Shown one piece after another: positions 1,811-10,638 of a stretch of DNA of 64,000 nt. The notes under the pieces were generated by a model, which was not told where the DNA came from, did no database searches, and saw only the letters and a list, made by a program, of their open reading frames with translations. Where the stretch lies: positions 280,364 to 344,363 of the forward strand of contig JAXLYM010000003.1 of the NCBI GenBank assembly GCA_046351455.1, written 5' to 3'. The first letter of the stretch is position 1, and each line of letters begins with the position of its first letter. Origin of the DNA: Polyangiaceae bacterium. GTDB lineage: Bacteria > Myxococcota_A > Polyangia > Polyangiales > Polyangiaceae. Made by a program: the position numbers and the translations under genes.

Positions 1811-3766
1811 TCAAGGCGTGTACCAGACCGGGGAGGTCCACGCGCGCTCTTGGATCGTCGCAGGAACGGGGAGCGCGTCGCAGTGGAGCGCGGCCCGCTT
1901 CTCGGGGCTCAGCGTCGCGCAGAGGTGCGCGCTCCAGCGGCACGTGGGGTTCTCGACGACGCGCGCGTAGTAGAGCGCGGGGCGCGCAGGATCGAAGTCC
2001 GGATCGCGCCACACCGCGCACAACGACTCGGCGCCGGGGCCCTTCGGAGCGCACGTGCTCGTGTCGACGGTCGCGCCGTTCTCTGCGTCGCCCGCGACGT
2101 CGATCACGCTCTCGCGCGGCTCGCCGTCGGGGCCGATCCAGAGCTTGATCACCTGCGCTCGTTGCAGCAGCGCGCCGGGCTTCTCCGCGGTGCCGGGATC
2201 GCGCAGCGCGGTCACGACGATCGACGGCGCGATCGACGCGGACGGCGCGGGCGGGAGATCGCCGCCCATCGGCGCGCCGCGCGCGTAGCCCTGCGCCACC
2301 AGATCTGGCGCGCCGCACAGATCGCCTTCGAAATCCCACCCCGCGAAGAGGCGCACCGAGATGCGCGGGCCGCTCGTGCCGAACGTCTCGCGGCGGCGGA
2401 GCGCGTCGAAGATCGCGTCGCGCGAATTCTCCTCGGCCCACACGCCCGCGAGGCCTCCGGGGTTCGCGAGGATCGGCGTCGCGGCCACCGCGTTGCCCGT
2501 CAGCAGGAGCTCCGGCGTGTCGTCCGAGAGGCCGAGGTGACCGCGAAAGCTCGCCTCGTCGACGCGGCCGGGCGTGCCGTTGTGCGTGTCGGTGCTCGCG
2601 ATGATGCCGAGCTTGAAGGGGTTGGCTCCGATGCGCTCCTCCTCCATCAGGCCCGTCTCCAGCGCGCCGCGCACGTAGTCGCGCCACGACGCGCACCCGA
2701 GGCCTCCGTTCGCGCCCCAGCCGGTGCCGTCGCGTCCGCAGTCGTCGTACGGCGGCCGCACCTGCTTCTCCATGTCGCACAGCTCGTCGGGCGCGCCCGG
2801 CACGGAGGGCAGCCCGTTGATGCACTCGGAGTCGCCCTTGTGCTGGAAGATCTCGACGAGCGGCTCCATCGACGCGCGCGCCTCGGCGGCGGCTCGCTGC
2901 TCCTCCGCGGTGCGCTTGTCGTGCGTCTCCACGTGGAACATCTGCCCGTTGGACAGGTTCGAGTTGTGCGGGATCGCGAGCACGTCACAGCCCTCGCCTG
3001 CGTCCGAGCACTGCGCGCGCAGCATCGTCCACAGCTTCTCGGGCGAGGGCGCCTCGTACGTCGTGATCGGCGCGGCGACGGTCTTCGCGTTGCGGAAGAT
3101 CACGTTGCGGTGCAGGTTCGTGCCGAAGGGCGAGAGCGAGTACTCGTACGCGACGAACGACGTGAAGCCGCACGTCGCGCTGCGATCGTAGGCGGCCTCC
3201 GCGGCGTCCTGGATGTTCCTCCACACGGGCCCCACCGCGTCCGTGCACATCGTCGTGCCCTGGCAGAACTCCGCGCGCACGGGCGGATCCGTGCCGATCC
3301 CGAGGCCGAGGAACGAGCTCTCCGGCGGGCGGTACGACTTGCACACGTCGGTGTCGTACGCGGGGGAGCCGGGCGTCGTGCACAGGCTCACCTCGCCGAG
3401 GTACTCCGCGTGATCGGTGACGGCCGCGAAATCGAGCGGGCGATCGATGCGCACCTCGGTGGTGCCGACGCCGTTCTCGTCGAGGGGCGGCAATTTAATC
3501 GTCTCGCCGCGCGCGAAGCGGTACGCCTCGGCCGGCGTGGTGCGCACGTCGTAGGTCCACGCGTCGAACGAGAAGGCCGTGTGCACGTGCAGATCGCCGA
3601 AGTACGCTCTTCGAAGCGGATCGTGATCGGCGCACGCGACGCGCTCCTCCGTGTACGGCGCGTCGAGGGGCGAAAGCTCGCAGGAGGTCATCGCGCACGC
3701 GGCGAGCGTGAGGAACGGGATCGCGGTGAAATGGCGGGCGCGCAGCGTCATCGAGGTCAGGACCAC
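1811..3766 (-). CDS. DUF3604-family protein (putative PHP-like metal-dependent hydrolase), lipoprotein/signal peptide
   Basis: N-terminal LTLAACAMTSC lipobox-like signal. The YFGDLHVHTAFSFDAW motif is characteristic of DUF3604. The 651-aa ORF is non-repetitive. Confidence 0.85.
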   Translation of the reverse strand: MVLTSMTLRARHFTAIPFLTLAACAMTSCELSPLDAPYTEERVACADHDPLRRAYFGDLHVHTAFSFDAWTYDVRTTPAEAYRFARGETIKLPPLDENGVGTTEVRIDRPLDFAAVTDHAEYLGEVSLCTTPGSPAYDTDVCKSYRPPESSFLGLGIGTDPPVRAEFCQGTTMCTDAVGPVWRNIQDAAEAAYDRSATCGFTSFVAYEYSLSPFGTNLHRNVIFRNAKTVAAPITTYEAPSPEKLWTMLRAQCSDAGEGCDVLAIPHNSNLSNGQMFHVETHDKRTAEEQRAAAEARASMEPLVEIFQHKGDSECINGLPSVPGAPDELCDMEKQVRPPYDDCGRDGTGWGANGGLGCASWRDYVRGALETGLMEEERIGANPFKLGIIASTDTHNGTPGRVDEASFRGHLGLSDDTPELLLTGNAVAATPILANPGGLAGVWAEENSRDAIFDALRRRETFGTSGPRISVRLFAGWDFEGDLCGAPDLVAQGYARGAPMGGDLPPAPSASIAPSIVVTALRDPGTAEKPGALLQRAQVIKLWIGPDGEPRESVIDVAGDAENGATVDTSTCAPKGPGAESLCAVWRDPDFDPARPALYYARVVENPTCRWSAHLCATLSPEKRAALHCDALPVPATIQERAWTSPVWYTP

Positions 3767-8646: not shown

Positions 8647-10638
8647 TCACATCCGGTTGGCGGCGCGGCTCGCGGAGCGGCGGGCGATCGCGCGCGGCCC
8701 CTCTTTCGCGAGCAAGCGGCGGAGCCCATCCATGTCGATCGGCTTCGTGTACACGGCGTCGACGCCGGCCGAGAGGTACCCCTCTTGTTGCTCCTGCGTC
8801 ACGCTCGCGGTGAGCGCCACCACGTACGTCAGCGACGCGGGCCCGCTCAGCGTCCGGAGCCGCCGCGTCACCTCGTCGCCGTTGAGCAGCGGCATCTGCA
8901 TGTCCATGATCGCCAGATCGAAGCGCTGCTCCGTGAGCAGCCGCAGCGCCTGCTTGCCGTCGCTCGCGACGACGACGTTCTGCTTCAGCTTCCGCAGCAT
9001 CAGGCTGATCACCATCTGGTTCACCGGGTTGTCCTCGGCGAGCAGCGTCCGCATCTCCGGGATGCCCGCGAGCTCATCGCGATCGCTCGGCGATCCCGTC
9101 TCTTCGGTGGGGATCTCGAACCAGAAGCGCGCGCCCTTGCCCGGCTCGCCCTCGGCGCCGATCGTCCCGTTCATCAGCGCGACGAGGCCGGAGCAGATCG
9201 CGAGCCCGAGCCCGCTCCCGCCGAAGCGCTGCGACGTCGCGTCCTCGGCCTGCCGGAACCGCTGGAACAGCCGCGCCTTCTGCGCCGCGGAGAAGCCGAT
9301 CCCGGTGTCCTCGACCTCCACGCGCAGGAGCCCGCGGCGGCCCTCCCACTCCTTCGTCGCGACGCGCAGCGTGACGCTCCCCTGCTCCGTGAACTTCAGC
9401 GCGTTGCCGAGCATGTTCAGCAAGATCTGCTGCACGCGCACCGGATCGAGCCGCACGAACCGCGGCAGATCGGCGGGCATCTCGACCTTGAGGGCGATCC
9501 CTTTTCGCTCGGCGCTCACGCGGAGGAGCGCCGCGGGCGAACGCAGCGTCTCGTCCAGCGAGACCGGCGTCGGCGAGAGCGGCAGCTTCCCTTCGTCGAT
9601 GCGCGAGTAGTCGATCACGTCGTTGAGCAGCGCGATCAAGGTCTGGTTCGACGTGCGGATCGTCTCGATGTAGCCGGCCTGCTCCTCGGTGAGCCTGGTC
9701 GCGCGCATCAGCTCGACGAGGCCGAGGATGCCGGCCATCGGCGTGCGCAGATCGTGGCTCATGTTCGCGAACAGCTCGGCGCGCGTCTGGGCCTCTCGCT
9801 CGACCTTGCGCATCGCCTTGCGCGCGTCCTCGGCGGCGGCGTCCGCGCGGGCCTTCTGCTCGCGGGCCTCTTTCTCGGCGCGCTCGGCCAGCTCCTTCGC
9901 GATCTCCAGCGCGCGCTGGTGCTCCTTGCGCAGCTCCATCTCGCGCTCCAGGCGCAGCCGCGTCGCGAGCTCACGGAGGCGCCGCTGCTCCATCCGGTGC
10001 GGGAGCCACGGGAGCCCGAAGATGCAAGGCGCCGCGCACGCGACCACGGCGATCAGCTCTTCGGGTGTGCCGTACGCGTCGCCGAGGCGCCCGCGCAGGT
10101 AGGCGAGGCTCCCCACGTAGAACGCGAGCGACGCGCCGCCGAGGATCAGCTTCGGCCGGATCGGCGCGAGGATCAGCGTCTGGAAGAGGGCCCAGGTGAA
10201 CACCATGGCCCACCCCTGCGTGTGCACGCGCGTGGGGTTCAGCGCGAGGGCGACGCTCACGATCGTGGGGAATCCGCCGACGAGCAGCAGCTTCGCGGGC
10301 ACGAGCCACCGCGGCGGACGCGGCGCGAACGTGGCGATCACGAGCGGCAGCGCCGTCGCGGCCGCGACCGCGCGCACCCCGAGCATCATGAGCGACAGCG
10401 GGGACACGCCGATCGTGATCGTCTCGCTGAGCCAGCCGAGGAGGATCCCGACGGCCGCGATCGAGCCGATCACGCGCTCGTAGCGCGCCTCCTGGGGCCA
10501 CCCTTCGGTGATCCAGCGCTGCCGCAGATCCGGATCGCCCGAGATCTCCGAGAGCGAAGGCAGGCTCTCCCGCACGATCGCGCCGCCGGCGATCACAGCG
10601 CCGGAAGGAGACTCGTCGCGTGCGGATCTCGGGGCCAT
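8647..10638 (-). CDS. Hybrid sensor histidine kinase/response regulator (membrane domain, HisKA, HATPase_c, REC)
   Basis: H-box FANMSHDLRTPM. The HATPase motifs are DTGIGF and GGSGLGLAI. The receiver domain is LLAEDNPVNQMV...DLAIMDMQMP. The start is probably MAPRSARDE at 10638; an alternative upstream start is at 10752. Confidence 0.85.
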   Translation of the reverse strand: MAPRSARDESPSGAVIAGGAIVRESLPSLSEISGDPDLRQRWITEGWPQEARYERVIGSIAAVGILLGWLSETITIGVSPLSLMMLGVRAVAAATALPLVIATFAPRPPRWLVPAKLLLVGGFPTIVSVALALNPTRVHTQGWAMVFTWALFQTLILAPIRPKLILGGASLAFYVGSLAYLRGRLGDAYGTPEELIAVVACAAPCIFGLPWLPHRMEQRRLRELATRLRLEREMELRKEHQRALEIAKELAERAEKEAREQKARADAAAEDARKAMRKVEREAQTRAELFANMSHDLRTPMAGILGLVELMRATRLTEEQAGYIETIRTSNQTLIALLNDVIDYSRIDEGKLPLSPTPVSLDETLRSPAALLRVSAERKGIALKVEMPADLPRFVRLDPVRVQQILLNMLGNALKFTEQGSVTLRVATKEWEGRRGLLRVEVEDTGIGFSAAQKARLFQRFRQAEDATSQRFGGSGLGLAICSGLVALMNGTIGAEGEPGKGARFWFEIPTEETGSPSDRDELAGIPEMRTLLAEDNPVNQMVISLMLRKLKQNVVVASDGKQALRLLTEQRFDLAIMDMQMPLLNGDEVTRRLRTLSGPASLTYVVALTASVTQEQQEGYLSAGVDAVYTKPIDMDGLRRLLAKEGPRAIARRSASRAANRM

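Follow-up and report, generated by a model that had tools for sequence, protein, structure and literature searches.

Why should a gene for a DUF3604 protein lie beside genes for a parvulin-type peptidyl-prolyl isomerase (PPIase) and a HupE/UreJ-like transporter, and does such a neighbourhood amount to a functional unit? The question is raised by a 64,000-nucleotide (nt) stretch, here called the window, from a metagenome-assembled genome (MAG) of a Polyangiaceae bacterium (window GC content ~70%). Five co-directional minus-strand open reading frames (ORFs), with third-codon-position GC contents (GC3) of 0.89–0.95 each, follow one another as hybrid histidine kinase, Rotamase_2 PPIase, a predicted lipoprotein of 976 amino acid residues (aa), HupE_UreJ_2 membrane protein and DUF3604 lipoprotein. 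An earlier note, made from the sequence alone, took the five to be a translationally coupled chain and a dedicated module for folding and metal-loading an extracytoplasmic hydrolase. All five of its domain calls are upheld here, one label being qualified below. The five-gene module itself does not survive: the conserved unit consists of three genes, the lipoprotein is an insertion seen in one clade, and the kinase is separated from the others in relatives.

A Conserved Three-Gene Cassette

The five window proteins served as tblastn queries against 80 species-level genome loci around DUF3604 homologs (47–69% identity), and iterated hidden Markov models were afterwards run on the same loci. Genes for the PPIase and HupE_UreJ_2 directly adjoin the DUF3604 gene on the same strand in 18 of the 80 loci. 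A further three loci stop at contig ends, in one the pair lies 7 kb from DUF3604, and in six the PPIase occurs without HupE. Among the 30 most similar loci, HupE is next to or near DUF3604 in 17, and 15 of these also have the PPIase. Both orders exist, i.e., PPIase-HupE-DUF3604 and DUF3604-PPIase-HupE. Minicystis rosea, Nannocystis and Enhygromyxa salina are among the carriers, as are other Myxococcota and Binatia; the full range covers Myxococcota, Binatia, Alphaproteobacteria and Gammaproteobacteria, and the cassette is often plasmid-borne. Among cultured bacteria the cassette is annotated in S. meliloti, R. leguminosarum, Roseibium, Rhodobacter and Pseudoalteromonas, where the PPIase gene mostly overlaps that for HupE by 4 nt. 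In a plasmid collection, DUF3604 matches 79 records and HupE 86, and the genus make-up is the same.

The linkage is also seen from the transporter side. Four distant HupE_UreJ_2 homologs (35–37% identity) were picked solely for their long contigs; three of the four loci show DUF3604, Rotamase_2 and HupE_UreJ_2 in order, and the fourth shows Rotamase_2-HupE. Eighty metagenome loci centred on HupE_UreJ_2 were then scored, the PPIase count requiring a flank of at least 300 nt (67 loci) and the DUF3604 count an upstream flank of at least 3 kb (30 loci). The PPIase gene is immediately upstream of HupE_UreJ_2 in 62/67 loci and DUF3604 is present in 20/30. Thus, the parvulin-HupE_UreJ_2 pair is nearly obligate, and DUF3604 is its commonest third partner, not its sole one. 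Finally, HupE_UreJ_2 and DUF3604 are fused in a single ORF in two MAG proteins, P0061 (942 aa) and P0093 (935 aa). Modelling of the P0093 fusion from a mixed alignment was abandoned, as MAFFT had placed HupE sequences on the DUF3604 part; DUF3604 was modelled alone.

The earlier note had made conservation of the DUF3604-HupE adjacency outside this genome a touchstone of its proposal. The adjacency recurs in species-level loci, metagenomes, plasmids and fused ORFs, and the Rotamase_2-HupE_UreJ_2-DUF3604 linkage is close to certain. A conserved fourth gene of ~200 aa after HupE was considered and rejected, as the candidates are mutually unrelated. Only the inserts of 358 aa and 398 aa in alphaproteobacterial cassettes are weakly similar to each other (E 1e-7).

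The Cassette Proteins

The DUF3604 gene occupies 1811–3751 on the minus strand, with an alternative GTG start at 3766. A 100% identical NCBI protein, P0001, has 646 aa, which places the start of the NCBI model at ATG 3751; this start also gives the cleaner lipoprotein signal peptide, MTLRARHFTAIPFLTLAAC. An exact-sequence lookup of the protein returned no record. The Pfam match to PF12228 is nearly end to end (E 7.5e-170; 566.7 bits versus a cut-off of 20.4; profile positions 3–591 of 591).

AlphaFold, run with an 82-sequence alignment, models DUF3604 with a mean local confidence score (pLDDT) of 92.6, and a fold search identifies the model as a PHP α/β-barrel with large insertions. A C-terminal domain resembles Ig/FnIII sandwiches. 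DUF3604 had no match at all in a sequence-profile search of the PDB, and scanning its segments against Pfam at E ≤ 10 brought up no PHP family, so that the fold search was needed for the assignment. The structure model thereby bears out the PHP-like character that had been read from a metal-binding motif. When the PHP ligand pattern, HxH ... H ... E ... H ... DxH, was compared in the sequence alignment, residues H55, H57, D113, H114, E203, H262, D388 and H390 were found to be invariant in the 82 homologs. Conservation extends to about 18 cysteines; Cys24, at the lipobox position, is near-invariant in the same set. The lipobox, the conserved cysteines and the invariant His, Asp and Glu residues speak for a disulfide-bonded metalloenzyme that is exported and lipidated. 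The earlier description of the protein as secreted is correct as to export, but a predicted lipoprotein anchored through Cys24 is not simply secreted.

Two variations on DUF3604 were seen in other loci. Binatia have DUF3604 proteins of ~880–900 aa, among them P0076, P0106 and P0118, with a different N-terminal extension of ~270 aa that is Ala/Gly/Val-rich, not HupE-like, and free of Pfam annotation. Tandem duplicated DUF3604 genes are frequent (L088, 3929–7743; L091, 3037–6743; also L118, L145 and L162), some lying upstream of a lone PPIase-HupE pair and others having no pair. The former hint that several paralogs may share a pair.

The HupE_UreJ_2 gene lies at 3757–4797 on the minus strand. 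Its product matches PF13795 (E 9.6e-43; 146 bits versus 24.5) over aa 152–308, and also PF04955 (2.6e-7; 30.8 bits versus a cut-off of 23). The GTG start yields a normal signal peptide, MRWTLVSVLLAISLLVGGAAA, with cleavage directly before HE. A transmembrane scan gives the layout as the cleavable signal peptide, a periplasmic domain of ~130 aa and 5–6 transmembrane helices, which carry conserved His, Asp and Glu. The mature N-terminus, HE.RP after the Ala of the cleavage site, is at least 90% conserved in 119 homologs, as are the motifs HxxxGxDHxLF and FGLLHGLGFAG and the transmembrane glutamate of GvE. The ~150 additional residues ahead of the HupE_UreJ_2 domain include the extra periplasmic domain to which attention had been drawn earlier. 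It is present, and without a Pfam match, but it is no peculiarity of this protein: it is the norm for a subfamily of ~330 aa. HupE/UreJ proteins transport nickel and cobalt, and those characterised import the metal into the cytoplasm. No transport data for the PF13795 subfamily were found in the literature. From family membership and context, it is plausible that HupE_UreJ_2 is a divalent-metal transporter.

The PPIase gene is found at 7721–8602 on the minus strand. The product has a Rotamase_2 domain (PF13145; 3.3e-14; 54.2 bits versus a cut-off of 27). A hydropathy scan places one N-terminal transmembrane helix at aa 34–52, and this is followed by a SurA/PpiD-like helical region and then the parvulin domain. 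The parvulin histidines H160 and H241, and the motif rEA..lGLdr.D.iVrRRL, are kept in 30 orthologs. By these features the PPIase is predicted to be a membrane-anchored, periplasm-facing isomerase or chaperone of the parvulin type. Some PpiD-type parvulin domains are inactive.

Gene Junctions in the Window

Coupling was scored at a junction with an overlap or a spacer of ≤10 nt and no terminator between the genes. Three junctions are of this kind. The PPIase and lipoprotein genes share an ATGA stop/start overlap at 7721–7724, and the lipoprotein and HupE genes a GTGA overlap at 4794–4797 (both minus strand). At the HupE/DUF3604 junction, ATG 3751 leaves a spacer of 5 nt, and the alternative GTG 3766 creates a 10-nt overlap at 3757–3766; the junction is tight with either start. 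The fourth junction is different. The kinase gene ends with TGA at 8647–8649, the PPIase gene starts with GTG at 8602, and the intervening minus-strand spacer of 44 nt (8603–8646) lacks any overlap, so that kinase and PPIase are not translationally coupled. That is, the claim of a coupled chain holds for the last four genes and not for the kinase. As for the coordinates given for it earlier, the two 4-nt overlaps and the 44-nt gap are there in the sequence, but the 10-nt overlap needs a GTG start that NCBI does not use.

No sigma-70-like or intrinsic-terminator-like site was found in 1400–11200; the scan is a weak one for a myxobacterium of 70% GC. The divergent intergenic region of the ORF map between the kinase and a plus-strand gene starting at 10866 (10639–10865) likewise yielded no consensus promoter. 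Past DUF3604, an intergenic gap of ~470 nt (1341–1810) closes the tight co-directional cluster. Beyond it, a minus-strand gene at 3–1340 (GC3 0.87, no Pfam match) leaves the window at its left end. It encodes a globular N-terminus and then a long Pro/Ala-rich region that contains a tandem repeat at 537–740, with 4.5 copies of 45 bp encoding KPAPPSAPPVAFTAA-like units.

The Lipoprotein and the Kinase

The 976-aa lipoprotein is encoded at 4794–7724 on the minus strand. Its lipobox is LLAAAGC, and neither Pfam nor NCBIfam gives a match. It had been described as a BNR/Asp-box protein. One Asp-box-like motif, TTSDGGRTW, is indeed present, and the pattern S-x-D-x-G-x-T-W occurs as a single copy that is conserved but sub-threshold. 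There are no repeats, and Pfam BNR does not match the window protein and gives its relatives 11–16 bits versus a cut-off of 27. Close homologs number just 7 among 5.8 billion proteins; at E < 1e-3 a wider family, of ~1000-aa proteins, extends to 312 representatives. An AlphaFold2 model is all-β with a pLDDT of 53, i.e., low confidence, and Foldseek matches it to tandem propellers (DDB1, Utp, LRP2) with structural-similarity (TM) scores of merely 0.13–0.19. The protein is probably all-β with multiple propellers, judging from this model. The poor model and the generic propeller matches allow no function to be read from the structure.

The lipoprotein is missing from 80/80 species-level DUF3604 loci and from every annotated plasmid cassette. 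Only two close relatives of the window locus, L081 and L083, whose DUF3604 proteins are 80% identical to that of the window, have a homolog in a cassette. There the order is PPIase, ~973-aa protein, HupE and DUF3604, and the 4-nt PPIase/lipoprotein overlap is repeated (L081, 6011–6014; L083, 5671–5674). Homologs P0126 and P0127 (42–43% identity) stand alone, outside any cassette. The lipoprotein is a clade-specific insertion between PPIase and HupE in Polyangiaceae. The idea that it is recent foreign DNA gets no compositional support, its GC3 of 0.89 being the same as that of its neighbours. Large proteins occur beside the pair elsewhere: two metagenome loci without DUF3604 have a ~1000-aa protein preceding the PPIase-HupE pair (L160, 1878–4937, with a weak PKD/Ig match; L174, 1866–4871), and both also have a ~560-aa protein before the pair, which in L160 is spermine-synthase-like.

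The kinase gene (8647–10638, minus strand) encodes 663 aa from the start at 10638, as compared with 652–657 aa in relatives. A multi-transmembrane N-terminus precedes the domains HisKA (8.8e-20), HATPase_c (5.9e-27) and the receiver, Response_reg (1.5e-20), all above the Pfam cut-offs; NCBIfam gives just sub-threshold TorS/BarA-like matches. One to four other genes lie between the kinase and the PPIase in L081 and L083, and in L083 the kinase comes directly after ftsK. No kinase was found in a conserved position among the 80 DUF3604 loci. The kinase is an ftsK-side backbone neighbour of the cassette and not a member of it.

The window's own FtsK/SpoIIIE DNA translocase, a synteny marker for the kinase, is full-length (4TM, alpha, motor and gamma domains) and encoded at 14314–18000 on the minus strand. 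Between it and the kinase are two overlapping plus-strand genes, at 10866–12155 and 12139–14277, with a GC content of 0.665–0.67, below that of the flanks. Their products have 429 aa, with weak matches to AAA+ lid domains, and 712 aa, with helical repeats; PADLOC found no match for either. The lower GC, together with the position of the kinase directly after ftsK in L083, makes the two look like an inserted two-gene island.

Expression and Metal Context

The gene order of the window recurs in Sinorhizobium fredii NGR234, at pNGR234b 505007–509997. Supplementary RNA-seq tables (PMC10970691) give fold changes for calcium versus control, and NGR_b05020 through b04970 rise jointly with calcium: NGR_b05020 (98-aa protein, no Pfam match) 2.7-fold, NGR_b05010 (PPIase) 3.1-fold, NGR_b05000 (HupE) 3.1-fold, NGR_b04990 (226-aa protein, no Pfam match) 3.0-fold, NGR_b04980 (DUF3604) 3.6-fold and NGR_b04970 (DUF1254/DUF1214) 3.2-fold, a range of 2.7–3.6-fold. 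The divergent NGR_b05030 is unchanged (PMC10970691). The cassette homologs are thus co-regulated in NGR234. DUF1254/DUF1214 genes recur beside the cassette in Alphaproteobacteria (L095, 3310–4941, which is the co-regulated NGR_b04970; L089, 4333–5769; L092, 906–2519), the genomes being NGR234, R. leguminosarum and Roseibium. DUF2092 (LolA-like) and adenylate-cyclase/TPR genes recur nearby in NGR234 and R. leguminosarum.

One cassette lies inside a metal-homeostasis island, on plasmid pSC52_1 of Rhodobacteraceae SC52 (L093, 4503–10849). Besides the PPIase and HupE_UreJ_2, the island encodes a classical HupE_UreJ (E 8.6e-60), a third protein with weak likeness to HupE, DUF1826 and two CobW/COG0523 GTPases. 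In this locus DUF3604 looks fragmented (206 aa), and the sister plasmid pSC52_2 has two intact tandem DUF3604 genes without a PPIase-HupE pair. A few AT-rich inverted repeats lie upstream in L090 and L093; they share no common motif, and we draw no claim from them.

What the Cassette May Do

We give a probability of about 50% to the following explanation: the enzyme that does the work is DUF3604, with the parvulin as its foldase and the HupE-like channel supplying or exchanging its metal. DUF3604 would belong to the PHP superfamily and would be exported by Sec, anchored by a lipid, rich in disulfides and equipped with a multi-histidine, probably trinuclear, metal site. The parvulin would be a dedicated foldase or holdase for DUF3604 emerging from Sec. 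HupE_UreJ_2 would be a small metal channel with a periplasmic domain tipped by the conserved N-terminal His, and it would supply or exchange a divalent metal at the membrane surface. PPIase and HupE, as an almost obligate and translationally coupled gene pair, probably form a membrane complex, of which DUF3604 would be the commonest client. The fast-evolving lipoprotein, inserted into the pair with the 4-nt overlaps kept on both sides, is probably a co-expressed extra client or accessory, and some read-through from the kinase gene into the cassette is possible. We infer the foldase role from PrsA, PpiD and NifM, and the metal role of the channel from the Ni/Co permeases of the HupE/UreJ family; the identity of the metal, the direction of its flow, the physical complex and the enzyme's substrate are inferences too. 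Metal-loading is suggested by family membership and context. More tentatively, the parvulin-HupE_UreJ_2 pair could be an unrecognised periplasmic metal-centre assembly machine, in which channel and foldase insert a specific divalent metal into Sec-exported folding enzymes. DUF3604 would be its principal client, and the 976-aa lipoprotein and other lineage-specific proteins would be additional ones.

Several observations weigh against the foldase-and-channel explanation. About one third of the long-flank PPIase-HupE pairs (10/30) are without DUF3604 and have a sulfatase, DUF3500, an NHL propeller or a PKD protein as neighbours; it follows that the pair is not exclusive to DUF3604. Some 50 of the 80 DUF3604 loci have no pair nearby. 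A HupE that acts as a cytoplasmic metal importer would not alone load a periplasmic enzyme. As to the fused ORFs, a sixth, weak transmembrane helix would misplace DUF3604, unless the signal peptide serves as an extra transmembrane helix. The recorded expression cues are calcium and apigenin only, with no obvious metal-limitation logic, and no shared Zur/Fur/Nur-like palindrome was seen by eye upstream of nine cassettes and the window.

The import activity of characterised HupE/UreJ proteins invites a reading in which the metal flows inward. DUF3604 would hydrolyse an extracytoplasmic phosphoester or metal chelate, HupE_UreJ_2 would import the released metal or product, and the PPIase would merely assemble both. 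A membrane-anchored PHP-fold hydrolase fits this picture, the channel-enzyme fusion would suit substrate channelling, and the SC52 cassette does keep company with COG0523 GTPases and a classical HupE. It would be odd, if the enzyme feeds the channel, that PPIase-HupE (62/67) is far steadier than HupE-DUF3604 (20/30). Moreover, no riboswitch or metal-regulator site was seen, and genes for cytoplasmic Ni/Co enzymes (urease, hydrogenase, B12) are absent near every inspected locus. Such an acquisition system seems unlikely to us. We are equally doubtful that the pair is a general-purpose envelope unit, e.g., for buffering metal in the periplasm or for quality control of membrane proteins, alongside which varied exported proteins have been recruited with no specific maturation tie. 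The heterogeneous neighbours of the ten DUF3604-less pairs speak for it, as do the lineage-specific genes within cassettes, coding for the 976-aa lipoprotein, the alphaproteobacterial proteins of 358 aa and 398 aa, and the 226-aa protein of NGR234. It sits poorly with the presence of DUF3604 in two thirds of cases, in several phyla and in both gene orders, with its fusion to HupE in two MAGs, and with its co-regulation with the pair in NGR234.

The original five-gene folding and metal-loading module, with the lipoprotein included and the kinase in control, is now very improbable. Absence of the lipoprotein from all 80 loci and all plasmid cassettes, its free-standing homologs, the displacement of the kinase by 1–4 genes in relatives and its synteny with ftsK all speak against it, and there is no response-regulator output gene. 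These outweigh, in our view, the shared direction of the genes, their spacing (one gap of 44 nt, followed by overlaps of 4 nt), the lack of terminator-like sites in the scan, and the constancy of the lipoprotein's position and overlaps in two close relatives.

DUF3604 and HupE_UreJ_2, with >8000 and >2000 homologs, respectively, in a protein search, are large families without a known function. A conserved, sometimes fused and co-regulated cassette offers one functional hypothesis shared by all three families, and is relevant to the question of how metal reaches exported metalloenzymes. The assembly-machine proposal, if true, would be a general answer to the correct metallation of enzymes that fold outside the cytoplasm. 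Since tractable rhizobia and Pseudoalteromonas carry the cassette (NGR_b04980 to b05020 in NGR234), the hypothesis is testable without culturing the Polyangiaceae MAG.

Comparison with Known Systems

The full-text literature contains one irrelevant mention of DUF3604, nothing for PF13795 or PF12228, and nothing tying HupE/UreJ to parvulins. As far as found, the PPIase-HupE_UreJ_2-DUF3604 cassette is undescribed. Its component superfamilies are known, and the logic of an enzyme with private maturation factors has precedents.

HupE/UreJ permeases such as Rhizobium leguminosarum HupE (PF04955) have a membrane domain homologous to that of the window protein. Shared features are the transmembrane His, Asp and Glu, and a signal-peptide cleavage that exposes an N-terminal His. 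The window protein differs in belonging to the separate PF13795 subfamily, with its ~130-aa periplasmic domain. Its gene company differs as well: the cassette HupE adjoins a parvulin gene, usually DUF3604, and never hydrogenase or urease genes in the inspected loci.

The parvulins PrsA, PpiD and NifM are dedicated foldases. Like these and SurA, the window PPIase joins a Rotamase_2 domain with both histidines to a chaperone-like helical region and a membrane anchor at the N-terminus. By NCBIfam it resembles NifM and PrsA weakly, scoring far under the equivalog cut-offs, and it is much shorter than PpiD. Unlike the known foldase parvulins, the cassette PPIase is genetically locked to a HupE-like channel; we know of no described parvulin with such a linkage.

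DUF3604 is only 12–18% identical to the PHP phosphoesterases, which include TM0559 (PDB 2anu), PDB 3e38, PsfC, EndoQ, RNase AM, HisK and the PHP domain of Pol III alpha. At ~650 aa it has large insertions and a C-terminal Ig-like domain. It is also predicted to be exported and lipidated and is cysteine-rich, whereas the characterised PHP phosphoesterases are cytoplasmic.

The closest parallels to the proposed division of labour are enzymes paired with maturation factors: the E. coli PHP zinc phosphatase YcdX with its chaperone YcdY, SlyD-HypB in nickel insertion, and lipase with its foldase Lif. As in the cassette, a metalloenzyme gene stands beside a private chaperone and/or a metal-delivery factor, and SlyD is a precedent for a PPIase in metal-centre assembly. 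These systems use other protein families, and all but Lif are cytoplasmic. In none of them is a parvulin combined with both a metal channel in the membrane and an exported PHP enzyme, the set that the cassette is predicted to encode.

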